Shown: piece after piece, positions 4,273 through 22,869 of the stretch | Position numbering within the stretch: position 1 is the stretch's first letter | Layout of the letters: each line of letters starts with the position of its first letter | Position numbers and translations under genes: made by a program | The notes under the pieces: generated by a model | Databases searched by the model: none | What the model was told of the DNA's origin: nothing | The model's input: only the letters and a program-made list of their open reading frames with translations | Assembly: GCA_963614875.1 (NCBI GenBank) | Contig: CAVEFC010000001.1 | Coordinates: forward strand, 99,808-163,807 | Direction: 5' to 3' | From: an uncultured Eubacteriales bacterium | Lineage (GTDB): Bacteria; Bacillota; Clostridia; Oscillospirales; CAG-272 | DNA: 64,000 bases

Positions 4273-5328
4273 ATGAAAAATTATCTTCTTCCGCCGGACG
4301 GAAGCTTCTTCAAAGCCAATATGCATTGCCACAGCGTTCTTTCCGACGGCAAATACACGGTAGAACAGTTGAAGGAGCTTTACAAAAACGCGGGATATTC
4401 CGTTGTTGCGTTTACGGATCACAACGTTCTTATCGACCATTCCGATCTTGCGGACGAAAGCTTTATGCCCATAACGGGCTATGAATACGACGTCTTTGCC
4501 GAACGCGGCGAGCGCTCGTACAGTCATACTCCGCTCGTACATATCTGCTTTTACGCAAAAGATCAGCATAATGACGTCATTCCCTGCTACAATCCGAGTC
4601 AGATATCGAATTCCCATGCCGATCTGCGCGAAAAGCAAAAATATTCCGGCACGCCGGACTACGTCCGCGATTACAAAAAGATAAACGAAACGATAGCCAA
4701 AACCTGCTCCGAGGGCTTTCTTGCAAGCCTGTGTCACCCGACATGGTCGGAACAGGATCTTGACGAATACAGAAATATCGAAGGCGTTTTCGCTATGGAG
4801 ATATTCAACTACGGCTGCTGGACGGAGGGCTACAACGAAATAAACGACCACGCATACGACGATCTTCTCCGCAGAGGAAAAAAGCTGTACTGCATAGCCT
4901 CCGACGACAATCACAACAATTTTCCGGCAGACGATCCGAAGTTCGATTCTCTCGGCGGATTTATAATGATAAAAGCGCCGAAGCTTGAATATTCCGCGAT
5001 TATGAAAGCGCTCGAAAACGGCGATTTCTATGCGTCGTCCGGCCCCGAAATCTACGAAATGTGGACGGAGGGCGAGGAGCTTCACATAAAAACGTCGCCC
5101 GCGGCAAGAATAGCCCTCACAACCTTCGGCAGACGGGCGTCTGTCTGTACTGGCAACAAAAAGGGCGAGCTTATCACCGAAGCCGTGCTGAAATGCTCCG
5201 GACTTTATGATCGCTATTGCCGCGTAACCGTTGACGACGGAAAAGGTCACTTTGCGTGGACGCGGGCTTATTTTGACTGCTGTAAGATGGAAAACGGTCG
5301 TTATGACGACGCTCCTTTCCGGAAATAA
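4273..5328 (+). CDS. PHP-domain metal-dependent phosphoesterase
   Basis: N-terminal MHCHSVLSDGKYT...VAFTDHN is the PHP histidinol-phosphatase-type metal motif. 351 aa. Confidence 0.65.
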   Translation: MKNYLLPPDGSFFKANMHCHSVLSDGKYTVEQLKELYKNAGYSVVAFTDHNVLIDHSDLADESFMPITGYEYDVFAERGERSYSHTPLVHICFYAKDQHNDVIPCYNPSQISNSHADLREKQKYSGTPDYVRDYKKINETIAKTCSEGFLASLCHPTWSEQDLDEYRNIEGVFAMEIFNYGCWTEGYNEINDHAYDDLLRRGKKLYCIASDDNHNNFPADDPKFDSLGGFIMIKAPKLEYSAIMKALENGDFYASSGPEIYEMWTEGEELHIKTSPAARIALTTFGRRASVCTGNKKGELITEAVLKCSGLYDRYCRVTVDDGKGHFAWTRAYFDCCKMENGRYDDAPFRK

Positions 5329-5371
5329 ACCTTTCTTTCAAAAAATTCTTTATATATTTTTCAAAAAAAGA

Positions 5372-5400
5372 TTGACTTGCAGCAGTTTTGAGTGTATAAT
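5372..5400 (+). promoter_or_regulatory. Sigma-A type promoter of the aromatic operon leader
   Basis: TTGACT (5372-5377), 17-nt spacer, TATAAT (5395-5400) preceded by a TG (extended -10). Confidence 0.6.
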
Positions 5401-5443
5401 ACAGGAAAAATTCAAACAAATGCTGCAAGGAGGATATCGTAAT

Positions 5444-5512
5444 ATGACACGCTTTTATTTTGCTATGCGATTTAATTATTATTATTTTACGACGTCCGCC
5501 CGTGAGCAATGA
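5444..5512 (+). CDS. Leader peptide MTRFYFAMRFNYYYFTTSAREQ (22 aa, 8 Phe/Tyr)
   Basis: AAGGAGG SD 8 nt upstream of the ATG. There are 4 Phe and 4 Tyr codons in 22. The stop codon abuts the first segment of a set of alternative hairpins upstream of the Phe/Tyr biosynthesis operon. Confidence 0.65.
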   Translation: MTRFYFAMRFNYYYFTTSAREQ

Positions 5513-5647
5513 TAAAGCCGCATAGCTTTGTATTTTTTGAATAAATACTTTGAAATGCCGCAAAGCTCACAGGATTGTGCTTTGCGGTATTTTTGCTTTT
5601 TACCGCAGGCATCGCTTTTGTGATATGCTTTGCGGTATTTTTCTTTT
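5513..5647 (+). promoter_or_regulatory. Transcription attenuator with alternative pairings and two tandem intrinsic terminators
   Basis: Segments are CCGCATAGC (5518-5526), CCGCAAAGC (5558-5566), GCTTTGCGG+T-run (5579-5601), ACCGCAGGCAT (5602-5612) and ATGCTTTGCGGT+T-run (5625-5647). Segment 1 can replace segment 2 in pairing with segment 3. Confidence 0.6.
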
Positions 5648-5665
5648 GTGAAAGGAAGTGCAGAT

Positions 5666-6853
5666 ATGTTACCGCAAAAAATGATTGAGCTCGGAAGTCA
5701 CAGCTCCGTTATAAGACAGCTTTTCGAGTACGGTAAAAAAAGAAAAAGCGAAATAGGAAGTGAAAACGTTTTCGATTTCAGCATAGGAAATCCGAGCGTT
5801 CCCGTGCCGAAAGCGGTGGACGACGCGCTCGTGTCGCTGATCGAAAGCGACGCGGATATTCACTGCTACACGTCGGCTGCCGGCGATATGTCGGCGAGAG
5901 CCGCGGTAGCCTCTTATCTCAACAAAACGTACGGCGCAAACGAAAAAGCCGAAAGAATATATCTTACCTCGGGCGCTGCCGCCGCGCTTGCGATATCGCT
6001 CGGCGCGCTTATATGCGACGGCGACGAGGTCATAGTTTTTGCGCCGTTCTTCCCCGAATACCGCGTGTTTGCCGAAAAAGCCGGCGCAAAGGTTATCGTC
6101 TGCCCGCCTTCCGCGGATTTTCAGATAGATTTTGAAGCGCTTGAAGCGCTTGTTTCGGAAAAAACAAAGGCGCTCATAATAAACTCTCCGTCAAACCCGT
6201 CGGGCGCGGTGCTTACGGAAGAAACGCTTTCAAGGCTCGGAGGGCTCCTCGATGAAAAATCGAAAAGCTACGGTCATCCGATATATGTAATATCCGACGA
6301 GCCCTACCGCGAGCTTGTTTACGACGGCAAAAAAACGCCGTACACGGCAAAATTCATAAAGAACACGATAAGCTGCTATTCGTTCAGCAAATCGCTTTCG
6401 CTTCCCGGCGAAAGAATAGGCTATATATGCGTATGCTCAGAATGTGCCGACGGCGACGGGCTTTTCCTCGGCGTGTGCGGCGCGGGACGCGCGCTCGGAT
6501 ACGTCTGCGCTCCGTCGCTTTTCCAGAAGATGATCCCGTCGATAATGGGAAAAACCTCCGACCTTTCGGCGTATAAAACAAACCGCAGGCTGCTTTACGA
6601 CGGTCTTACCTCGCTCGGCTTTGAAGCCGTGTACCCCGACGGCGCTTTTTATCTCTTTGTGAAATCGCCGGAGGAAGACGAGCTTAAATTCTGCGAAAAA
6701 GCCAAAAAGTATGAGCTTCTGCTCGTGCCTTCGGGCGATTTCGGTATCGGAGGATATGTAAGAATAGCCTACTGCGTATCGGAAAATGTGATAAAAGACT
6801 CTATGCCCGCGTTTGAAAAGCTGGCAAAGGAATACGGACTTTCAAAAAGGTAA
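5666..6853 (+). CDS. PLP-dependent class I aminotransferase (aspartate/aromatic aminotransferase type)
   Basis: SD aaaggaag upstream of ATG 5666 (the track start at 5630 is TTG inside the terminator). Contains NPSNPSG and the PLP-lysine motif SFSKSLSLPGERIGY. Confidence 0.8.
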   Translation: MLPQKMIELGSHSSVIRQLFEYGKKRKSEIGSENVFDFSIGNPSVPVPKAVDDALVSLIESDADIHCYTSAAGDMSARAAVASYLNKTYGANEKAERIYLTSGAAAALAISLGALICDGDEVIVFAPFFPEYRVFAEKAGAKVIVCPPSADFQIDFEALEALVSEKTKALIINSPSNPSGAVLTEETLSRLGGLLDEKSKSYGHPIYVISDEPYRELVYDGKKTPYTAKFIKNTISCYSFSKSLSLPGERIGYICVCSECADGDGLFLGVCGAGRALGYVCAPSLFQKMIPSIMGKTSDLSAYKTNRRLLYDGLTSLGFEAVYPDGAFYLFVKSPEEDELKFCEKAKKYELLLVPSGDFGIGGYVRIAYCVSENVIKDSMPAFEKLAKEYGLSKR

Positions 6854-6859
6854 ATTTTT

Positions 6860-7939
6860 ATGGAAAACAAACTTATTCAGGCACGGAACAGAATATCGGA
6901 AATAGACGTCAAAATGGCGGAGCTTTTCGAGGAGCGTATGCGCGCGTCGGAGGACGTTGCCGAATACAAGCGCAGATGCGGACTTCCGATAGAAGATCCG
7001 CAAAGAGAAGCGGAGCTTATCCGCAGGAATTCGCTTTATGTATCGCAGGAGCTCCGCCCGTATTACACAAGCTTTCAGCAGGACGTTATGAAGGCTTCGA
7101 AGGCCTATCAGCGCAGACTCATCAGCGGAGAAAAAATCGCCTATTGCGGCGAGGAGGGCGCGTTTGCGTTCTTCACGGCAAAAAAGCTGTTTCCGGACGG
7201 AATTCCCGTCGCAAAAAACAGCTTTGAAGAAGCGTATGCATCTGTTATGAGCGGCGAATGTGAGCTTGCCGTGATTCCCCTTGAAAACAGCTATGCGGGA
7301 GAGGTCGGTCAGGTAACGGATATGCTGTTTTCCGGACCGCTGTTTATAAACGCCGTGTACGATATAGCCGTCGAGCAGACGCTTATGGGCGTCAGAGGCG
7401 GGACAATATCGGACATAAAAAAGGTGATAAGTCATCCTCAGGCGCTGGCGCAGTGCGCAAAGTTCATTTCATCGCACGGCTGGGAAACGGAAACTGCGCA
7501 AAGCACTTCGTCCGCCGCGCTTGAAGTATCAAAAAAGGGCGATAAAAGTCTTGCCGCGATAGGCTGCGCTCAGGCAGCCGAGCTTTATTCGCTTTCCGTT
7601 CTCGAAAAGAACATAAACGAAAGCAGAGCGAACACCACGCGCTTCGGGGTTTTCTCGGGATCGGAAAACACCTCCGCCGGCAGACTGGAATCGGACGGCT
7701 TTGCGCTTGTGTTTACGGTAAAAAACGAAGCCGGCGCGCTTGCCGACGCGCTCGGCGTCGTCGGAAAGGCGGGCTTCAATATGAGAACGCTCCGCTCAAG
7801 ACCGCGAAAGGAGCTTGTCTGGAATTATTATTTCTATCTTGAAGCCGAAGGCGCGCTTCGCAGCGAAGCCGGAGAGAAAATGCTTTCAGAGCTTCGCATG
7901 TATTGCGACAGGCTCAAGGTAGTTGGAATATACAGATAA
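6860..7939 (+). CDS. pheA: Bifunctional chorismate mutase / prephenate dehydratase
   Basis: N-terminal chorismate mutase helix (ISEIDVKMAELFEERM), PDT domain (IAYCGEEGAFAF...PLENSYAGEV...THPQAL-like ISHPQALAQC), and C-terminal ACT domain. Confidence 0.85.
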   Translation: MENKLIQARNRISEIDVKMAELFEERMRASEDVAEYKRRCGLPIEDPQREAELIRRNSLYVSQELRPYYTSFQQDVMKASKAYQRRLISGEKIAYCGEEGAFAFFTAKKLFPDGIPVAKNSFEEAYASVMSGECELAVIPLENSYAGEVGQVTDMLFSGPLFINAVYDIAVEQTLMGVRGGTISDIKKVISHPQALAQCAKFISSHGWETETAQSTSSAALEVSKKGDKSLAAIGCAQAAELYSLSVLEKNINESRANTTRFGVFSGSENTSAGRLESDGFALVFTVKNEAGALADALGVVGKAGFNMRTLRSRPRKELVWNYYFYLEAEGALRSEAGEKMLSELRMYCDRLKVVGIYR

Positions 7940-7951
7940 AACGGAGGAAAT

Positions 7952-8953
7952 ATGACCGTAAAAGTTGAACTCGGAGAAAGATCCTACGATATAACAATAG
8001 AAAAAGGCGCACTTTCCCACGTGGAAAAATACATTTCGCCAAAAGGAAAAACGCTTATCGTCACGGACGACGGCGTGCCCTTTGAATATGTACGGTCTGT
8101 GGCGGAAAAATCCGAGCAGCCGACAGTAATAACCATTCCGCACGGAGAAGAAAGCAAATGCTTTGAAAATTACAGAATGCTGTGCTCCGCAATGCTGAAG
8201 GCTGGCTTTACGCGCAACGATAAAGTCGTAGCCGTCGGCGGAGGAGTCGTCGGGGATCTTGCCGGATTTGCGGCGTCCACCTATATGCGCGGAATAGATT
8301 TTTACAACATTCCGACAACGCTGCTTTCTCAGGTCGATTCGTCCGTCGGAGGAAAAACGGCGATAGATCTCGACGGAATAAAAAACATTGTGGGAACGTT
8401 TTATCAGCCGAAAGCCGTCATAATAGATCCGGACACGCTGAAAACCCTTGACCGCCGTCAGTTTGCGTCGGGTATGGCGGAGGCGCTGAAAATGGCGGCT
8501 ACATCGGACAAAGCCCTGTTTGAGCTTATAGAATCGGGCATAAACGGAGAAAACATAGGCGAGGTGATACGTCGGGCGCTGATTATAAAGGCGGACGTCG
8601 TTTCAAAGGACGAAAAAGAGGCGGGGCTTCGCCGTATACTTAACTTCGGGCATACGCTCGGACACGGAATAGAAAGCCTCGGCGGACTTTATCACGGCGA
8701 ATGTGTGGCGCTCGGAATGCTGTGTATGTGTTCCGAAAAGGTTTATCCGCGTCTTTTCGCCGCAATAAGCTCGCTCGGACTGAAAACAAAAATCCACGCG
8801 GACGCGGACGCGGTACTCAGCGCGGTTTCACACGACAAAAAAAGACAGGACGACACCGTGTGTGCTGTCTTTGTAAACGAAATAGGCACATATGAAATCA
8901 AAAAAGTCACGGCAAAAGACCTCAGACAAAGACTTTCAAAAGTGATATATTAA
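7952..8953 (+). CDS. aroB: 3-dehydroquinate synthase
   Basis: GGGVVGDLAGFAASTYMRGIDFYNIPTTLLSQVDSSVGGKT and the LNFGHTLGH motifs. Confidence 0.9.
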   Translation: MTVKVELGERSYDITIEKGALSHVEKYISPKGKTLIVTDDGVPFEYVRSVAEKSEQPTVITIPHGEESKCFENYRMLCSAMLKAGFTRNDKVVAVGGGVVGDLAGFAASTYMRGIDFYNIPTTLLSQVDSSVGGKTAIDLDGIKNIVGTFYQPKAVIIDPDTLKTLDRRQFASGMAEALKMAATSDKALFELIESGINGENIGEVIRRALIIKADVVSKDEKEAGLRRILNFGHTLGHGIESLGGLYHGECVALGMLCMCSEKVYPRLFAAISSLGLKTKIHADADAVLSAVSHDKKRQDDTVCAVFVNEIGTYEIKKVTAKDLRQRLSKVIY

Positions 8954-8967
8954 CAGGAGTTTTATTT

Positions 8968-10083
8968 ATGAAAAACACATTAGGTCAGAGCGTAACGGTA
9001 ACTGTTTTCGGAGAAAGTCACGGTGCTTATGTCGGCGCCGTACTCGACGGCTTGGCTCCCGGCATTGAAATCGATGAAAAATTCATCGCAGGAAGGCTTG
9101 CAAAGCGCCGTCCATCCGGCGCAATATCCACATCCAGAAAAGAAAAGGACGAATTCAGAATAATCAGCGGATATTTTGACGGTCACACCACGGGCTCGCC
9201 CTTGTGTATAATCATTCCCAACTCCGACGCAAGAAGCGCGGATTATATGCTGAATGCCGGACGCGCACGCCCCGGTCATGCGGATTATACCGCTTACCGA
9301 AAATATTACGGCTTTGAGGACTGGCGCGGCGGCGGTCATTTTTCGGGCAGAACAACGGCTGCGCTCGTAGCGGCGGGAGCAGTGTGCGAGCTTGCCCTCC
9401 GTATGCAAAACATCACCGTCGGCACGCATATTCTCAGGTGCGGCGGAGTAAGCGACAGCAAATTTGAAAATATGGCGGCGGAAATAGCCGCAATTGATAA
9501 AAAATCCTTCCCCGTTATATCGGACGCGGCGGGAAAGCTGATGAAAAAAGAAATTCTCGACGCCGCAAATGACGGCGACAGCGTCGGCGGAATTCTCGAA
9601 ACCGCGGTGCTCGGCGTTCCGGCAGGCGTGGGCGAGCCGTACTTTGACAGCCTTGAAAGCGTCATTTCTCACGCGGTGTTCTCCGTTCCGGCGATAAAGG
9701 GCGTACAGTTCGGCGCGGGCTTTGCGCTTGCCGATATGCGCGGAAGCGAAGCAAACGATCCGTTTATGATGGACGGAGACAAAATAGTGACAAAAACCAA
9801 CAACAGCGGCGGCATAAACGGCGGAATAGCAAACGGAATGCCGATAGTATTTTCCTGCGTGGTAAAGCCCACTCCCTCCATAAGCAAAGAGCAGGATACG
9901 GTTGAATTTCTTGAAAACAAAAACGACAGGATAGTCGTCACGGGCAGACACGATCCCGCAATAATTCACAGAGCCTGCCCCGTTATAAGCGCGGTGACGG
10001 CTATCGCCGTATGCGATATGCTTGCCGTAAGATACGGAACGGACTTCCCCCGTCGCGGAATGTCGGACGAAAAACTTTTCTGA
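8968..10083 (+). CDS. aroC: Chorismate synthase
   Basis: FGESHG, RPGHADY and GGGHFSGR signatures. Confidence 0.9.
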   Translation: MKNTLGQSVTVTVFGESHGAYVGAVLDGLAPGIEIDEKFIAGRLAKRRPSGAISTSRKEKDEFRIISGYFDGHTTGSPLCIIIPNSDARSADYMLNAGRARPGHADYTAYRKYYGFEDWRGGGHFSGRTTAALVAAGAVCELALRMQNITVGTHILRCGGVSDSKFENMAAEIAAIDKKSFPVISDAAGKLMKKEILDAANDGDSVGGILETAVLGVPAGVGEPYFDSLESVISHAVFSVPAIKGVQFGAGFALADMRGSEANDPFMMDGDKIVTKTNNSGGINGGIANGMPIVFSCVVKPTPSISKEQDTVEFLENKNDRIVVTGRHDPAIIHRACPVISAVTAIAVCDMLAVRYGTDFPRRGMSDEKLF

Positions 10084-10099
10084 TGAGAGGCACCCGAAA

Positions 10100-11344
10100 A
10101 TGATAACAGGTCTTGTCGGCGAAAAGCTCGGTCACAGCTTTTCGCGCGAGATACATTCGGCTCTGGGCGATACGTCGTACCGCAATTTTGAGCTGAAAAA
10201 GGACGAGCTTGCAAAATTTATATCCGAAAGAAATTTCGACGGAATAAACATTACCATTCCATACAAAACCGATGTGATTCCGCTTCTTGACGTCATAAGC
10301 GACGAAGCAAAAGCGATAGGAGCCGTCAACACCGCAGTAAATCGCCGCGGGAAGCTTTTCGGCTACAACACCGATTTTTTCGGAATGAGAGAGCTGATAA
10401 CAAAAAACCGTATTCCCGTAAAGGAAAACGCCGTGCTTATACTCGGCACGGGCGGAACGTCGCGCACGGCAAAAGCCGTAGCCGAAAGCCTCGGAGCTTT
10501 GAGCGTTGAAAAAGTCAGCCGCAATCCCGACGGCGAAGGCGAAATAAGCTATGCGGTGGCAAAGGAAAAATATTTTTCTCTGCCGGTTGTAATAATCAAC
10601 ACCACGCCGCTCGGAATGTTTCCGAATATTTTCACCTGCGCGATCGAACCCAAGGATTTTTCGCGTCTTCTCGGAGTGGTTGACGCAGTGTTCAACCCAT
10701 TGAGAACCGAGCTTGTCGTGAAAGCTGGAATGCAGGGCGCTTTGTCCTGCGGCGGACTTTATATGCTCACAGCGCAGGCGGTAAAGGCTTCGGAGCTGTT
10801 TTTCGACAGAAAATATCCCGACGGCACAACGGAAAAAATATATCGGGAGCTGCTCGAAAAAAAGGAAAACATCGTGCTTGTCGGTATGCCCTCGTGCGGA
10901 AAAACGACGATAGGAAAAATCATCGCCGAAAAAACCGGAAAAAGCTTTATCGACTGCGACCTGCTTTTTGAAAGCACCTTCGGCATTTCGCCCGCGGACT
11001 GCATAAAAGGCGAGGGCGAGGCGGCTTTCAGAAACAAAGAAAGCCTTGTGATACGCGATATCGCATCGAAAAATTCGTGCGTTATTGCAACGGGCGGCGG
11101 AGCTGTTCTCAGAGAAGAAAACGTTATAAACTTAAAGAAAAACGGAAAAATAATATTCATCGACCGCTCGCCAGAAAAGCTGACGGCAACGTCAGACCGT
11201 CCGCTTTCGCAAAGCCGTGAGCTTATAGAAAAGCGATATCGCGAGCGCTATGAAATATACTGCAAAGCGGCTGATATAAAGGTGGACGGAAACGGCTCGG
11301 CGGCAGACGTTGCAGCCACGATACTTTCAAAGGAGCGGAAATGA
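10100..11344 (+). CDS. aroE/aroK: Fused shikimate dehydrogenase / shikimate kinase
   Basis: N-half has INITIPYK...GAVNT...GTGGTSR (AroE). C-half has the Walker A motif GMPSCGKTT plus GGGAVL (AroK). 414 aa as a single ORF. Confidence 0.85.
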   Translation: MITGLVGEKLGHSFSREIHSALGDTSYRNFELKKDELAKFISERNFDGINITIPYKTDVIPLLDVISDEAKAIGAVNTAVNRRGKLFGYNTDFFGMRELITKNRIPVKENAVLILGTGGTSRTAKAVAESLGALSVEKVSRNPDGEGEISYAVAKEKYFSLPVVIINTTPLGMFPNIFTCAIEPKDFSRLLGVVDAVFNPLRTELVVKAGMQGALSCGGLYMLTAQAVKASELFFDRKYPDGTTEKIYRELLEKKENIVLVGMPSCGKTTIGKIIAEKTGKSFIDCDLLFESTFGISPADCIKGEGEAAFRNKESLVIRDIASKNSCVIATGGGAVLREENVINLKKNGKIIFIDRSPEKLTATSDRPLSQSRELIEKRYRERYEIYCKAADIKVDGNGSAADVAATILSKERK

Positions 11345-11784
11345 AAATACTCGTTATAAACGGTCCGAACATAAATATGCTCGGAATAAGAGAACCCGAT
11401 ATTTACGGCAGGGAAACCTTTGCCTCTCTTGAAAAAAAGATAAAGGCATATTGCAAAAGCAAAAATATCGGGGTAAAGCTTTTTCAGTCGAACTGCGAGG
11501 GGAAGCTTGTCACAAAAATTCAGCGCGCCTACAAAAAGTTTGACGGAATAATCATAAATCCCGGCGCTTACACGCATACAAGCATAGCCATTCCCGACGC
11601 GCTGAAAGCGGTCGCTGTTCCGACGGTCGAGGTACATATTTCGGACGTTGACGCGCGCGAGGATTTCCGCAAAATAAGCTATGTGCGCTCTGCGTGCTTT
11701 GCCACGATATCGGGGCACGGCACAAACGGCTATACGGAGGCTGTCGACGCGCTTATATCAAAGCTTTCCGGCGGTGCGAAATGA
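11341..11784 (+). CDS. aroQ: Type II 3-dehydroquinate dehydratase
   Basis: MKILVINGPNINMLGIREPDIYG...INPGAYTHTSIA...HISD hallmark. ATGA overlap with the upstream gene. Confidence 0.9.
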   Translation: MKILVINGPNINMLGIREPDIYGRETFASLEKKIKAYCKSKNIGVKLFQSNCEGKLVTKIQRAYKKFDGIIINPGAYTHTSIAIPDALKAVAVPTVEVHISDVDAREDFRKISYVRSACFATISGHGTNGYTEAVDALISKLSGGAK

Positions 11785-12992
11785 AAGTATATATAGGTAA
11801 AAAAGCGGCGTCGGGGATTTTCACGGCTCCGCCTTCGAAAAGCTTTTGTCACAGAGCGCTGATATGCGCCGCTCTTGCCGACGGCAAAAGCGTTCTTTAC
11901 GGGATGTACCCCTCGGACGACGCGCTTGCAACCGCCGCGTGTCTTTCGGCGCTCGGCGCGGATATCCGCTTCGACGGGGACAGGGCATACGTCTGCGGCT
12001 TTGACGCGCTCGGCGCAAAGGCAAAAGGCGCTCTTTTCTGCGGCGAAAGCGGAAGCACGCTTCGCTTTCTCACGGCGGTGGCGCTTCTTTCGCAAAACGA
12101 AACGGTGCTGACAGGCTCTGCGCAGCTTTTGCAAAGACCGCTTGCCGAATACGAAAAACTTTGTCTTTGTCAGAACCTTTTGTATAAAAAAGACGAAAAT
12201 TCACTTACCGTCCGCGGCAGACTTCCGGCAGGAACATATGAAATAAGCGCAGAGGTTTCAAGTCAGTTTGCAAGCGGACTTATGATGGCGCTTCCCCTGC
12301 TTTCATCCGACAGCAGAATAGTGCTGACGGGAAAAATCACAAGCCGTTCGTATCTTCTCATAACGGCGCAGGTGATGCGCGCGTTCGGCGCAGACGTTAC
12401 CGTCGGCGAAAGAGAAATATATATAAAGGGCAATTTCCGCTATGCTCCGCGGGAATACACAATCGAGGGCGACTGCTCGGGCGCGGCGTTTTTTGAAGCG
12501 ATGAACAGGCTCGACAGCAATATAAAAATAACGGGGCTCAATCCCGAAAGCGTTCAGGGCGACAGAATTTACGGAGAATATTTCGACAGGATATGCGCCG
12601 GCTCTGCCACGCTTGACATAACCGACTGTCCCGATCTTGCTCCGGTGCTTATGGCGCTCGGCGCGGCAAAAAGCGGCGTTACCCTGACGGGAACGGCACG
12701 TCTTCGCGCAAAGGAAAGCGACAGAGGCTCGGCTATGGCGCAGGAGCTTTCAAAATTCGGAATAAAAACGGAGCTGTACGAAAACTCTCTCACCGTATAC
12801 GGCGGCGGGCTTAAAGCTCCGACCGTACCGATATGCTCGCACAAGGATCACAGAATAGTAATGGCGTGCGCCGTTTTGCTTATGCTTACCGGCGGAGAAG
12901 CAGATAATGCCGAGGACGTAAAGAAGAGCTTTCCCGATTTTTTCGAAAGGCTTTCGGCTCTCGGCGCGGAGGTAAAAATCGTTGGAACTTAA
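11781..12992 (+). CDS. aroA: 3-phosphoshikimate 1-carboxyvinyltransferase (EPSP synthase)
   Basis: Start moved to ATG 11781, which forms an ATGA overlap with the aroQ stop. Contains PPSKS, GESGSTLRFL and RAKESDR motifs. Confidence 0.85.
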   Translation: MKVYIGKKAASGIFTAPPSKSFCHRALICAALADGKSVLYGMYPSDDALATAACLSALGADIRFDGDRAYVCGFDALGAKAKGALFCGESGSTLRFLTAVALLSQNETVLTGSAQLLQRPLAEYEKLCLCQNLLYKKDENSLTVRGRLPAGTYEISAEVSSQFASGLMMALPLLSSDSRIVLTGKITSRSYLLITAQVMRAFGADVTVGEREIYIKGNFRYAPREYTIEGDCSGAAFFEAMNRLDSNIKITGLNPESVQGDRIYGEYFDRICAGSATLDITDCPDLAPVLMALGAAKSGVTLTGTARLRAKESDRGSAMAQELSKFGIKTELYENSLTVYGGGLKAPTVPICSHKDHRIVMACAVLLMLTGGEADNAEDVKKSFPDFFERLSALGAEVKIVGT

Positions 12993-13836
12993 CAGCAATA
13001 CCAAAATACTTATCGTAGGTCTGGGCGTAATGGGCGGAGGCTATGCCAAAGCTCTTACAAAAAAGGGCTACAAAATAAAAGCGATAGACATATCGCAAAA
13101 AACGATAGACTATGCGCTTAAAAACAATTTCATCTCTTACGGCACGACAAAGGTCGAGCCTTCGCTTGTGTCGGAAGCCGATATAATAGTGTTTGCGCTT
13201 TATCCGCACACCTTCAAAAAATGGATAACCGATTATCAGAAATATTTCCGTTCTGGAATAATAATCACCGATGTTACGGGCGTAAAGGGCTGTATCGTTT
13301 ATGATATACAGTCGATTCTGCGCGAGGATGTCGAATTCATAGCGGCGCATCCCATGGCGGGACGTGAGCGTTCCGGCATCGAATACAGCGACGATAAGGT
13401 TTTTATCGGCGCAAACTACATTGTAACGCCGACCGCAAAAAACACGCGTCCGGCAATTGAGCTTTGCAAAAAGCTCGGATATGAGCTTGGCTTTGAGCAT
13501 ATTTCCGAAATAACGCCGGAGCTTCACGATGAAATGATAGCGTTTCTTTCACAGCTTACGCACTGCATAGCGGTAGCACTTATGACGGCGGGAGAAAATC
13601 CGCGTCTGCGCGATTATTCCGGCGACTCGTTCCGCGATCTTACGCGGATTGCAAAAATAAACGACGAAATGTGGAGCGAGCTTTTCCTGCTCAACCGCGA
13701 CGCGCTTCTGCGCGAAATGGACGCCTTTGAAAGAGAGTTCAAAAAGCTGAAAGCCTGCGTCGAATCGGGCGACAGAGAAACCATGCGCGAAATGATGAAA
13801 TGCTCCACCGAGCGCCGCGCTTTGTTTGATAAATAG
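12982..13836 (+). CDS. tyrA: Prephenate dehydrogenase
   Basis: TTG start with GGAGG 9 nt upstream. Rossmann motif IVGLGVMGGG and HPMAGRE catalytic motif. Confidence 0.8.
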   Translation: MELNSNTKILIVGLGVMGGGYAKALTKKGYKIKAIDISQKTIDYALKNNFISYGTTKVEPSLVSEADIIVFALYPHTFKKWITDYQKYFRSGIIITDVTGVKGCIVYDIQSILREDVEFIAAHPMAGRERSGIEYSDDKVFIGANYIVTPTAKNTRPAIELCKKLGYELGFEHISEITPELHDEMIAFLSQLTHCIAVALMTAGENPRLRDYSGDSFRDLTRIAKINDEMWSELFLLNRDALLREMDAFEREFKKLKACVESGDRETMREMMKCSTERRALFDK

Positions 13837-13871
13837 ATTTTTTTCATATACACGAAAGGACCGATAAAAAA

Positions 13872-14900
13872 ATGAATATGGAATTCAGAAGAAAGCTGCC
13901 TATTCCGAAGGAAGTAAAGGAGATGTATCCTATCTCCGAGGAGCTTATAAAAATAAAAGAGCAGAGAGATAACGAAATAAAAGCCGTATTTTCCGGCAAA
14001 AGCGATAAATTCATTCTTATAATAGGACCTTGCTCCGCCGACAGCGAAGCTCCCGTTCTCGAATATGTCACACGTCTTAAAAAAGTGGCGAATCAGGTAT
14101 CCGACAAGCTCGTAATAATTCCCAGAGTATATACAAACAAGCCGAGAACCGTCGGCGACGGCTATAAAGGAATGCTTCATCAGCCCGATCCTTCCGGCAA
14201 TCCCGATATACTCAAGGGTATAATCGCCATTCGTGAGCTTCACACAAGAGTTCTTCGCGAAACGGGACTTTCCACAGCCGACGAAATGCTTTATCCCGAC
14301 AATCACCGTTATCTTTCGGATCTTCTTTCGTATATTGCGGTAGGCGCAAGATCTGTCGAAAATCAGTTTCACCGTCTTACAGCCAGCGGTCTTGATATTC
14401 CCGTCGGTATGAAAAACCCCACAAGCGGCGACCTTTCGGTAATGCTCAATTCCATAACGGCAGCTCAGCATCCTCACGTTTTCATTTACAGAGGGTGGGA
14501 AGTGAAAAGCAAAGGCAACGAATATACGCACGCCATTCTGCGCGGATATGTAAACAAGCACGGCGAATCTCAGCCCAACTATCATTACGAGGATCTTGTT
14601 TTCCTTGCGGAGCATTATGCCGCGCACGACCTCAAAAACAAAGCCGTAATAGTTGATACAAACCACGCAAACTCCGGCAAGCGCTGGTTCGATCAGATAA
14701 GAATCGCAAAGGAAGTGCTTTCCTCCTGCCGTCAGAACGACGAAATAAAAAATATGGTGAAAGGTCTTATGATTGAAAGCTATCTTGAAGACGGCGCTCA
14801 GAAAATAGGCGAAGGCATATACGGAAAATCCATCACCGATCCCTGTCTCGGCTGGGAGAAAACCGAAAAACTCATTTTTGAAATCGCCGACCTCCTCTGA
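13872..14900 (+). CDS. aroF: 3-deoxy-7-phosphoheptulonate (DAHP) synthase, class I
   Basis: IIGPCSADS, KPRT, GARSVENQ and DTNHANS motifs. 342 aa. Confidence 0.85.
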   Translation: MNMEFRRKLPIPKEVKEMYPISEELIKIKEQRDNEIKAVFSGKSDKFILIIGPCSADSEAPVLEYVTRLKKVANQVSDKLVIIPRVYTNKPRTVGDGYKGMLHQPDPSGNPDILKGIIAIRELHTRVLRETGLSTADEMLYPDNHRYLSDLLSYIAVGARSVENQFHRLTASGLDIPVGMKNPTSGDLSVMLNSITAAQHPHVFIYRGWEVKSKGNEYTHAILRGYVNKHGESQPNYHYEDLVFLAEHYAAHDLKNKAVIVDTNHANSGKRWFDQIRIAKEVLSSCRQNDEIKNMVKGLMIESYLEDGAQKIGEGIYGKSITDPCLGWEKTEKLIFEIADLL

Positions 14901-22795: not shown

Positions 22796-22840
22796 ACAAA
22801 CAAAGAAGATGGGCTGGTCTCCGGACCCGGGTCCACCTGC

Positions 22841-22869
22841 GGCGGGGATGTTCCCCGCCATTTTCTTTA
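22841..22869 (+). terminator. Terminator-like hairpin in the DUF3800 leader
   Basis: GGCGGGG-atgtt-CCCCGCC followed by ATTTTCTTT, only ~12 nt before the ATG. Preceded by the palindrome GGACCCGGGTCC. Confidence 0.4.

Follow-up and report, generated by a model that had tools for sequence, protein, structure and literature searches.

How is an operon expressed when two strong terminators stand between its promoter and its first gene, and what could tie the escape from these terminators to the products of the operon? These two questions are raised by a stretch of 64,000 nucleotides from an uncultured Eubacteriales bacterium (contig CAVEFC010000001.1, positions 99,808 to 163,807 of the forward strand), which is referred to as the window at its full length and whose numbering is used throughout. 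On the forward strand of the window, a nine-gene operon for the synthesis of Phe and Tyr (5666–14900) is preceded by a promoter and a 259-nt leader, in which a short open reading frame (ORF) rich in Phe and Tyr codons is followed by the two terminators. We propose that the leader is a Phe/Tyr-sensing, ribosome-mediated (leader-peptide) transcription attenuator, and on the strength of folding models and of the comparison with related leaders the probability of this reading is put at roughly three in four. The exact pairings through which such a leader would switch are a more tentative matter, and for the three-stage scheme described below the chances are judged to be somewhat less than even.

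An earlier, sequence-only reading of the same DNA had already pointed to this element, and when positions 5100–5900 were read through again, each of the features it had named was found in its place or a few bases away. Its general logic, that of the pheL/trpL type, in which a ribosome at the stop codon leads to termination and a ribosome stalled at the Phe/Tyr codons leads to readthrough, is kept here, but its antiterminator pairing scheme is replaced by another one.

The leader ORF and its relatives

The leader peptide gene MTRFYFAMRFNYYYFTTSAREQ occupies positions 5444–5515 of the forward strand (the ORF itself 5444–5512). It has 22 codons and ends with TGA at 5510–5512, which is followed by an in-frame TAA at 5513–5515, and the Shine-Dalgarno sequence (SD) AAGGAGGA is located at 5427–5434 (+), ahead of the ATG at 5444. 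Four Phe and four Tyr account for 8 of the 22 residues, with no Trp, and the codons for them lie at 5453–5461 and 5471–5488. The reading frame contains eight Phe/Tyr codons as compared with one and four in the other two frames and with 3.1 expected from shuffles (p=0.0004), so that the Phe/Tyr-rich, Trp-free mini-ORF of the sequence-only reading is well founded. Two other candidates for a reading frame were rejected. A second small ORF from the ATG at 5556 (MPQSSQDCALRYFCFLPQASLL) has no SD, and in L002 its frame is lost through the deletion of 1 nt; an ATG at 5420, upstream and in frame, also lacks an SD, and translation from it would meet a stop two codons later in the relatives.

Relatives of the locus were sought with the aminotransferase encoded by the first gene of the operon, with one genome taken per species, and afterwards by scanning metagenomes and by searching genomes for a DNA pattern. 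Five close relatives, with aminotransferases 82–95% identical, carry a leader of the window type. The differences within their ORFs keep the frame: Phe4 is changed to Tyr or Cys, AAT to AAC, further changes are synonymous, and a 3-nt insertion of TAC in L003 and L005 gives a fifth Tyr with the frame intact. The metagenome and pattern scans gave ten further leaders, of a second clade, with peptides of the form ...(Y/F)Y(Y/F)AMRFYYY..., such as MMKTTYYYAMRFYYYTASL. The genome search with the pattern GCTATGCGATTT-N-CGCATAG met 52 stretches, 14 of which are real leaders (five of them already known); the other matches, from Proteobacteria, Bacteroidota and other groups, lie inside genes or repeats and were discarded as chance. 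The same search also met arrays of direct repeats of about 27 nt (...CTCTAGGCTATGCGATTTCGGA...) at the ends of two contigs (L110 and L118) of one metagenome-assembled genome, RUG11810, which are unrelated to the attenuator.

Altogether, 16 further leaders in two clades (aminotransferase identity 55–95%) have retained the SD, the Phe/Tyr-rich ORF, the motif GCUAUGCG, the motif CGCAUAG with a U-run and both terminators, T1 and T2. The codons GCU-AUG-CGA between the Phe/Tyr runs are common to these 16 leaders, and the peptide core YYAMRFYYY is conserved as amino acids in both clades. With the window's own genome included, the family extends over at least 15 species-level genomes and two metagenome contigs. 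Conservation of the mini-ORF had been named as a check on the sequence-only reading, and across the 16 related leaders the Phe/Tyr-rich ORF is indeed kept in frame.

In relatives with aminotransferases of 52–62% identity, the leaders (L006, L007/L008, L009, L011 and L096) are unrelated to that of the window in nucleotide sequence. Each of them still has an SD, a Phe/Tyr-rich mini-ORF and a terminator, with peptides such as MYFANSYFYYFTSASFLCNNF, MNSYYRFYYSFIPFRPTA, MFNFSIQFFYFINTDCPHTVKTKF and MLFNKGYYFYYFSQGCLTSFENA, and the in-frame Phe/Tyr enrichment of these unrelated leaders has p values from 0.0008 to 0.035. The Phe/Tyr leaders of the related loci precede the same gene order, aminotransferase-pheA-aroB-aroC, and Trp is found in none of the leader peptides. 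Since the richness in Phe and Tyr is kept in sequences that are otherwise unrelated, the ORF is neither a chance ORF nor one conserved only as RNA.

The choice of codons deserves a closer look. All eight Phe/Tyr codons of the window leader end in U (UUU or UAU), while UUU makes up 53% of the Phe codons and UAU 55% of the Tyr codons in the 18 genes of the window. This uniformity could result from a structural constraint towards AT-rich sequence, or from a preference for codons decoded by wobble. It also opens the way to another explanation, in which the leader is a general sensor of translation: any slowdown of the ribosome or any loss of initiation would alter termination, and the Phe/Tyr bias would be a by-product of U/A-rich hairpins and U-runs. 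Such a sensor would agree with the GC content of the leader (36.7% against 47.4% for the window), with the exclusive use of UUU and UAU, and with a hairpin followed by a U-run within the leader, described below as 1:2, which resembles a translation checkpoint. What it leaves unexplained is that the enrichment is specific to the frame in 11 leaders, where the in-frame count exceeds both the off-frame counts and those of nucleotide shuffles, that UAC and UUC are used in the leaders of relatives, and that the inserted TAC lies in frame and adds a Tyr codon. Moreover, the enriched amino acids match the end products of the operon, Phe and Tyr, exactly; the operon has no trp genes, and Trp is absent from every leader peptide. 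We therefore regard a general sensor as improbable and return to the attenuator that senses Phe and Tyr.

Terminators, antiterminators and the ribosome

T1 (5555–5601, +) is built from the stem 5555–5566:5579–5590, extended by 5568–5569:5576–5577, and from the U-run UUUUUGCUUUUU at 5590–5601. T2 (5601–5648, +) has the stem 5601–5615:5620–5637 and the U-run UUUUUCUUUU at 5638–5647. Their folding energies are −19.7 kcal/mol (5555–5590) and −18.4 kcal/mol, respectively. A simple terminator scan missed both of them because of bulges and loop size; nevertheless, the two terminators that were said to reuse one motif are both present with their U-runs. The pairing motif occurs five times along the leader, and the folding of the 259-nt leader has a z-score of −5.1 relative to dinucleotide shuffles. 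In subclade Ib, the upper stem of T1 is changed from CACA/UGUG to CUCGC/GCGAG.

Upstream of the leader, a sigma-70-type promoter (TTGACT at 5372–5377, a 17-nt spacer and TATAAT at 5395–5400, +) agrees with the consensus at 11 of 12 positions. It is the sole sigma-70-like site found by a promoter scan of either strand within 4800–6200, the transcript probably starts near 5407, and TTGAC...GAGTGTATAAT is kept in both leader clades. From the U-run of T2 to the first ATG of the operon at 5666 there are only 17 nt. With neither a second promoter nor space for one, the operon is expressed only via readthrough of two strong terminators, which answers the first question raised above.

The layout could also be read as that of an independent small gene, for a hydrophobic micropeptide or a small RNA, which ends with tandem terminators of its own and is followed by an operon living on constitutive leak-through or on an unrecognised promoter. 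The conservation of YYAMRFYYY as amino acids in two clades would suit such a gene, and so would the strength of T1 and T2, which are always the equilibrium fold. This explanation is hard to reconcile with the scarcity of room and the lack of any other promoter-like site between 5400 and the first gene, with the constant place of the element relative to the same operon, and with the peptides of the other families, which are unrelated and resemble each other only in their richness in Phe and Tyr. The antiterminators AT1 and C:D, to which we turn now, are in addition no less conserved than the terminators. An independent small gene is accordingly the least probable of the explanations considered here, and a very improbable one.

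In order to describe the competing pairings, the strands are lettered A for the sequence just after the stop codon, B and C for the 5′ and 3′ strands of T1, and D and E for those of T2. The antiterminator AT1 (5502–5570, +) is composed of GUGAGC:GCUCAC (5502–5507:5565–5570), GC:GC (5517–5518:5560–5561), GCAU:AUGC (5520–5523:5555–5558) and the apical helix GUAUUU:AAAUAC (5530–5535:5543–5548), and it covers the whole 5′ strand of T1. The anti-T2 hairpin C:D (5577–5612, +) pairs the 3′ strand of T1 (5577–5589) with the 5′ strand of T2 (5601–5612) over 12 bp and has an energy of −15.1 kcal/mol. C:D can form in all 17 leaders, including those of clade II despite their different terminator sequences, and in the 17 leaders it hides 7–12 of the 10–15 nt of the T2 5′ strand (z-scores from −1.9 to −7.5). 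A chimeric duplex test for clade-specific C:D pairing was not discriminating, because the core CCGCA/GCGG is common to all clades, and only subclade IIc stands out in it.

A further helix, P1, is found in the minimum-free-energy (MFE) folds between a 5′ strand at 5421–5442 (+), which includes the leader SD, and a 3′ strand at 5487–5508 (+), which forms an anti-SD in the final codons of the leader ORF. GUGAGC (5502–5507) of this 3′ strand doubles as the outermost 5′ strand of AT1. Pairing of the SD with the 3′ part of the ORF is also seen in the MFE folds of the unrelated families, clearly in L006, L009, L011 and L096. P1 may serve as a limit on re-initiation.

The conservation of the two sets of helices was assessed on an alignment of 17 leaders, made with MAFFT from sequence only and consisting of sequences that are related to each other. 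P1, T1 and T2 together are paired in 76.5% of the cells as compared with 35–53% for the slid control, and AT1 with C:D in 75.4% as compared with 33–52%, although the derivation of the helices from the window sequence inflates this control and so counts against our reading. The covariation score of P1, T1 and T2 is 0.229 (0.128 at most for the slid control) and that of AT1 with C:D is 0.222; none of 500 shuffles scored as high in either case. Taken one by one, T1 is paired in 90.3% of the cells with four pairs changing on both sides, T2 in 70.8% with eight, P1 in 69.6% with six and C:D in 70.8% with four. The helices of AT1 are paired in 66–85%; its GCA:UGC is invariant in 17 of 17 leaders, the adjacent pair is swapped clade-wise between C-G and U-A, and the apical helix shows several compensatory changes. 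A switch is expected to leave just such a trace, namely two folds that exclude each other and are conserved to the same degree.

The strands of T1 and T2 have one more relationship. The 5′ strand of T1 is a perfect complement of the 3′ strand of T2 (GCCGCAAAGC / GCUUUGCGGU, within 5555–5637), and as a consequence the MFE fold at full length is a nested structure in which B:E encloses C:D (−51.6 kcal/mol for 5501–5650), and not a pair of distinct terminators. The T1 loop of clade-II leaders holds a copy (GCAGAAUGCC) of the 5′ strand of T2. The nesting of C:D within B:E may have been left behind by a duplication, or may be a 5′ structure that stabilises the readthrough mRNA.

A third pairing involves the ORF itself. 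Segment 1, GCUAUGCG (5462–5469, +), which encodes Ala-Met-Arg between the two Phe/Tyr runs, is perfectly complementary to CGCAUAGC (5519–5526). The latter belongs to segment 2, the pivot (5517–5538, +), which consists of GCCGCAUAGC followed by the U-rich tract UUUGUAUUUUUU and is what the sequence-only reading had numbered as its own segment 1. GCTATGCGATT and CGCATAG are invariant in 17 of 17 leaders from both clades, whereas the rest of the peptide, the position of the stop codon and the terminators differ, and in each leader CGCAUAG is followed by a U-run. The 1:2 hairpin has an energy of −18.7 kcal/mol and is the MFE fold in all nine representative leaders tested with the SD region removed. 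The stop codon lies between −4 and +9 nt from segment 2 in 13 of the 17 leaders, and a ribosome stalled at most of the flanking Phe/Tyr codons covers segment 1 at least partly. Together with its U-run, the 1:2 hairpin may well act as a pause site or as a first terminator (T0), the counterpart of the 1:2 pause hairpin of trp. A local hairpin after the stop codon (AUAAAGC/GCUUUGU, 5512–5531) was also considered for T0, but it is broken in L005 and L128, where AAAGC is changed to AUUGC, and the conserved 1:2 pairing was preferred. In the clade-II leaders L028, L108, L115, L119, L155 and L156, the first 25 nt or so form a hairpin GCGG...CCGC with compensatory variation in loop and stem. The 3′ strand of this hairpin, CCGCAUA, repeats the pivot motif once more and might also pair with GCUAUGCG; the window's clade does not have it.

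Taking these pairings together, we propose a "domino" of three stages, with the hairpin and U-run units 1:2, T1 and T2 placed in series, as a possible though by no means assured mechanism. As long as no ribosome is present on the Phe/Tyr region, GCUAUGCG would pair with CGCAUAGC, and the hairpin with its U-run would probably pause or terminate RNA polymerase; the pause would keep transcription in step with translation, and would also keep segment 2 off the 5′ strand of T1. With an ample supply of Phe-tRNA and Tyr-tRNA, the ribosome would reach the TGA-TAA at 5510–5515 and cover 5495–5524, so that the pivot could not pair. The 5′ strand of T1 would then be free, T1 would form, and any polymerase escaping from it would meet T2. 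When either charged tRNA is scarce, the ribosome would stall at the Phe/Tyr codons flanking segment 1 and mask it, in which case 5502–5535 would pair with 5543–5570 to give AT1 before the 3′ strand of T1 is made. The idle 3′ strand of T1 would pair with the 5′ strand of T2 as C:D, T2 would be disabled and the operon transcribed.

In such a chain, one stall would shift all pairings by one register and leave the 3′ strand of T2 free, defeating two or three terminators at once, and the expression of the operon would be tied to the supply of both charged tRNA-Phe and charged tRNA-Tyr. The 1:2 unit would serve at the same time as a checkpoint, for pausing or for termination, by which RNA polymerase and ribosome are kept in step, in a phylum where the two are regarded as uncoupled. 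A chain of alternative pairings would also give a reason for the recurrence of the motifs CCGCA(A/U/G)(A/G)GC and GCUUUGCGG along the leader.

What does the position of the ribosome change in the folding? In the transcript just before T1 is completed (5407–5572), AT1 is the MFE fold when the ribosome is absent and also when it is stalled at any Phe/Tyr codon. With the ribosome on the stop codon (TGA in the A site, footprint 5495–5524), only −4.9 of the −17.3 kcal/mol of AT1 is left, and the barrier for refolding from AT1 to T1 is lowered from 12.6 to 3.9 kcal/mol as a direct-path estimate by findpath. The proposal that a terminating ribosome masks a segment of importance is thus supported in silico, since T1 loses its competitor once the sequence past the stop codon is hidden. 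It had also been said that the stop codon abuts this segment; strictly, there is a gap of 5 nt, but the segment is inside the footprint of the terminating ribosome. In clade II, the paired fraction of the T1 5′ strand with upstream sequence drops from about 0.8, both in the free RNA and at most Phe/Tyr stalls, to 0.17–0.48 with the ribosome at the stop codon.

The scheme of the sequence-only reading differs at the next step. Its three segments are CCGCATAGC (5518–5526, +), 5 nt past the TGA, CCGCAAAGC (5558–5566, +), a one-mismatch copy of the former, and GCTTTGCGG (5579–5587, +), after which comes UUUUUGCUUUUU. In its version, CCGCAUAGC (5518–5526) would antiterminate by pairing with the 3′ strand of T1, GCUUUGCGG (5579–5587), in place of its second segment. 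This A:C complementarity is real, extending over nine positions with one U-U mismatch; the energy of the duplex is −15.0 kcal/mol for the window and ranges from −12.4 to −17.3 kcal/mol across clades I and IIc, and the forced A:C conformer, at −17.1 kcal/mol, comes close to AT1. Moreover, a ribosome at the stop codon would mask the same segment, which is the same logical step as in the AT1 model. The difficulty is in what the stem would do. A:C uses the 3′ strand of T1 in the same register and shares with T1 both its last nucleotide and the U-run behind it, so that it has the shape of a terminator with a larger loop and makes an alternative terminator stem instead of an antiterminator. The second segment is also nearer to the third, pairs with it perfectly and adds 2–4 bp of upper stem, T1 (−19.7 kcal/mol) being always the MFE. 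In addition, A:C has to await transcription of the third segment, while AT1 forms some 20 nt before that point; A:C does not touch T2; and it is a weak pairing in subclade IIb (−4.8 to −5.7 kcal/mol, against −8.9 to −10.6 for A:B). Antitermination through A:C is therefore considered unlikely, and AT1 is preferred as the antiterminator of the proposed attenuator.

Several observations weigh against the reading as an attenuator of this kind. First, the equilibrium folds contain T1, or the nested B:E/C:D structure, for every position of the ribosome. Folding with and without masking, which had been suggested as a check, for this reason did not discriminate, T1 being formed whatever was masked. 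As T1 is there at equilibrium in all states, the switch has to be kinetic, and an equilibrium terminator in all states is indeed normal for attenuators, in which the decision is a kinetic one. Co-transcriptional kinetics were approximated here by the barrier heuristic only. Second, in the window's own clade, masking of the stop codon changes the sequestration of the T1 5′ strand little or inconsistently. For the window the value goes from 0.59 to 0.60, because GCUUUGU (5525–5531) still pairs with GCAAAGC (5560–5566). In the other families, simulation of the masks for L006–L009 gave no clear difference between stalled and stop positions. Third, segments 1 and 2 never vary among the 17 leaders, so that no covariation supports the 1:2 pairing, and the motif Ala-Met-Arg-Phe could be conserved for a reason at the level of the peptide instead. 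Without a ribosome, the thermodynamic model favours P1 and AT1 over 1:2, and the default state of the untranslated leader could thus be off or on. In four clade-II leaders the stop codon lies 18 nt upstream of segment 2, outside the footprint of the ribosome. Finally, in Bacillus subtilis transcription is reported to run uncoupled from translation, which makes a mechanism of this type less obvious in Firmicutes.

As to the families with unrelated leaders, the SD region of L007/L008 (CUUUUGAAAGGGAAG) has its complement within the terminator, in the inner 5′ part (CUUUUCCGCUUUUCAAAA). Their antiterminator may be the ribosome-binding region of the leader itself, a wiring unlike that of the window.

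Known RNA classes and a factor acting in trans

Could the leader belong to one of the known regulatory RNA classes? A cmscan of the 1.4 kb from 4800 to 6200 at E≤10 gave only chance matches, to eukaryotic microRNA and small nucleolar RNA models. At this threshold there was no match on the leader to the T-box family (RF00230), as the sequence-only reading had expected, and none to the leader families of Rfam (Phe_leader, Trp_leader, His_leader, Leu_leader, Thr_leader and the Lactococcus leu/phe leader). For the whole window, the only match at the Rfam gathering score is a DUF3800-XI RNA at 22810–22856 (+; 53.8 bits, E=4e-09), which is unrelated to the attenuator. In nine related loci, the sole Rfam matches are T-boxes with 99–110 bits, which are found in four of the loci near the aro leaders, though not on them: L007 2409–2650 (−), L011 2217–2473 (−), L119 7667–7911 (−) and L149 1445–1692 (+). 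The T-box model thus detects T-boxes in these taxa, from which it follows that the aro leaders are not T-boxes. The T-boxes of L007 and L011 lie immediately upstream on the opposite strand and so serve the divergent gene. For a TRAP site, 9–11 (G/U)AG triplets with spacers of 2–3 nt and an overlapping antiterminator were looked for; in 5407–5665 there are only three GAG/UAG triplets, no two of them properly spaced.

These results bear on a further explanation, by which a factor acting in trans, either a Phe/Tyr-sensing RNA-binding protein or an uncharged tRNA that works by way of a kind of leader not described so far, would bind CCGCA(A/U)AGC / GCUUUGCGG or CGCAUAG, the mini-ORF being incidental or a translation checkpoint. 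A binding site of that sort would be in keeping with the fivefold recurrence of the motif, with the invariance of GCTATGCGATT and CGCATAG in 17 leaders without covariation to prove their mutual pairing, and with the simulations, which give no clean switch by ribosome position in clade I or in the other families. It does not explain why sequence-unrelated leaders that are free of the motif still bear Phe/Tyr-rich ORFs before the same operon. The repeats of the motif, for their part, are fully explained by strands each of which needs two partners. There is no T-box, other Rfam family or TRAP array on the leader, and no candidate regulator gene adjoins the operon, the gene immediately upstream encoding a PHP-domain protein. 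A trans-acting factor is improbable on these grounds, and sensing by the translating ribosome remains the preferred explanation.

The operon and comparison with known systems

The nine genes of the regulated operon (5666–14900, +) were identified with Pfam. They encode, in order and all on the forward strand, a class I/II aminotransferase (5666–6853), PheA with CM_2, PDT and ACT domains (chorismate mutase-prephenate dehydratase-ACT, 6860–7939), AroB (DHQ synthase, 7952–8953), AroC (chorismate synthase, 8968–10083), an AroE-AroK fusion (Shikimate_dh_N and SKI, 10100–11344), AroQ (DHquinase II, the type II dehydroquinase, 11341–11784), AroA (EPSP synthase, ending at 12992), TyrA (prephenate dehydrogenase, 12982–13836) and DAHP synthase (13872–14900). 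The genes are tightly packed in one direction, with pheA and tyrA present and no trp genes, and the operon makes Phe and Tyr from central metabolites. The assignment of exactly these two products in the sequence-only reading, from pheA, tyrA, the shikimate pathway and the aminotransferase, agrees with the Pfam matches. The aroE-aroK fusion is one ORF of 414 aa (10100–11344) with full-length matches in the related operons L144, L146 and L155. The longest ORF for aroA, from a GTG at 11694, overlaps the 3′ end of aroQ by about 90 nt (11694–11784), and the real start is probably more downstream.

If the proposed attenuator is true, classical ribosome-mediated attenuation, rather than a T-box or TRAP, governs the whole supply of Phe and Tyr in abundant and mostly uncultured gut Clostridia. 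It would also mean that the leading ribosome keeps pace with RNA polymerase in these bacteria, possibly with the help of a built-in pause hairpin, a point which bears on the debate about coupling in Firmicutes. As a natural design, the chain of tandem terminators would be compact and would place two terminators under the tight control of a single input. Under the domino scheme, the occurrence of such leaders in unrelated sequences would point to a repeated origin or rebuilding of Phe/Tyr leader peptides among the Oscillospirales-like Clostridia of the gut. For annotation, the signature consists of an SD, a Phe/Tyr-rich mini-ORF, GCUAUGCG...CGCAUAG with a U-run and tandem terminators, an element to which Rfam is blind at present. 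Our literature search found no publication describing this leader element.

In Firmicutes, aro, phe and tyr genes are usually controlled by T-box leaders. Like the window leader as we read it, these attenuate transcription in the 5′ leader according to the charging of tRNA, with an intrinsic terminator at their end; unlike them, the window leader lacks the T-box fold, the specifier loop and the T-box sequence. With respect to the mixed peptide, there is a parallel in the multivalent attenuators of enterobacteria, ilvGMEDA (Leu/Val/Ile) and thr (Thr/Ile), in which codons for several amino acids are combined and a shortage of any of them relieves termination. These leaders share the multivalent peptide with that of the window, but they are proteobacterial, have a single terminator and respond to other amino acids.

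The sequence-only reading had called ribosome-mediated attenuation unusual for Firmicutes. It is uncommon there, yet the statement goes too far, since leader-peptide attenuators have already been predicted in this group (PMC2965389, PMC9413887, PMC8632094). In the parts of two of these accounts that are used here, His-leader attenuators were predicted by comparative genomics in the Bacillus cereus group, Peptostreptococcaceae and Erysipelotrichales (PMC2965389, PMC9413887). As presented in those parts, the His leaders resemble the window leader in taking the place of T-boxes and in having a short ORF with cognate codons before alternative antiterminator and terminator hairpins; they differ in the amino acid and the operon, their sequences are unrelated, and tandem terminators are not described there (PMC2965389, PMC9413887). 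A further case is uORFC-13-1 of Acholeplasma, an upstream ORF (uORF) with Phe codons and a terminator ahead of aroF, for which ribosome-mediated attenuation was proposed (PMC8632094). It shares with the window a Phe-codon uORF right before a terminator, a gene of the shikimate pathway and a Firmicutes-related lineage. By its description, however, it is a U-run that encodes at least one Phe and not a mixed Phe/Tyr peptide, and it has a single terminator, aroF as the only target, and another lineage and sequence (PMC8632094). No match to this motif appeared in the Rfam searches of the leader and the window.

Another counterpart is pheL-pheA of E. coli and other gamma-proteobacteria (Rfam Phe_leader; PMC3082878). 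There, as in the window, a short ORF is rich in codons for the end product, its stop codon adjoins the pivot, pairings of the 1:2, 2:3 and 3:4 kind are possible alternatives, and the terminator stands before a chorismate mutase-prephenate dehydratase gene. The choice of partner is also the same as in trpL and pheL, the pivot of the window being predicted to pair with the 5′ strand of the terminator and not with its 3′ strand. In contrast to pheL-pheA, the leader in the window has no similarity to it in sequence or to its covariance model, it belongs to a Clostridia host, and it would sense both Phe and Tyr, with four codons for each. While pheL controls pheA alone, the window leader would control the whole shikimate pathway together with pheA, tyrA and an aminotransferase. 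It also has two full terminators in series, a predicted second-stage antiterminator, and a third hairpin with a U-run around the regulatory codons. What is new in comparison with all these systems is a leader family in two clades with several sequence-unrelated sister leaders, its target, an entire shikimate-Phe-Tyr operon, and the tandem-terminator chain.

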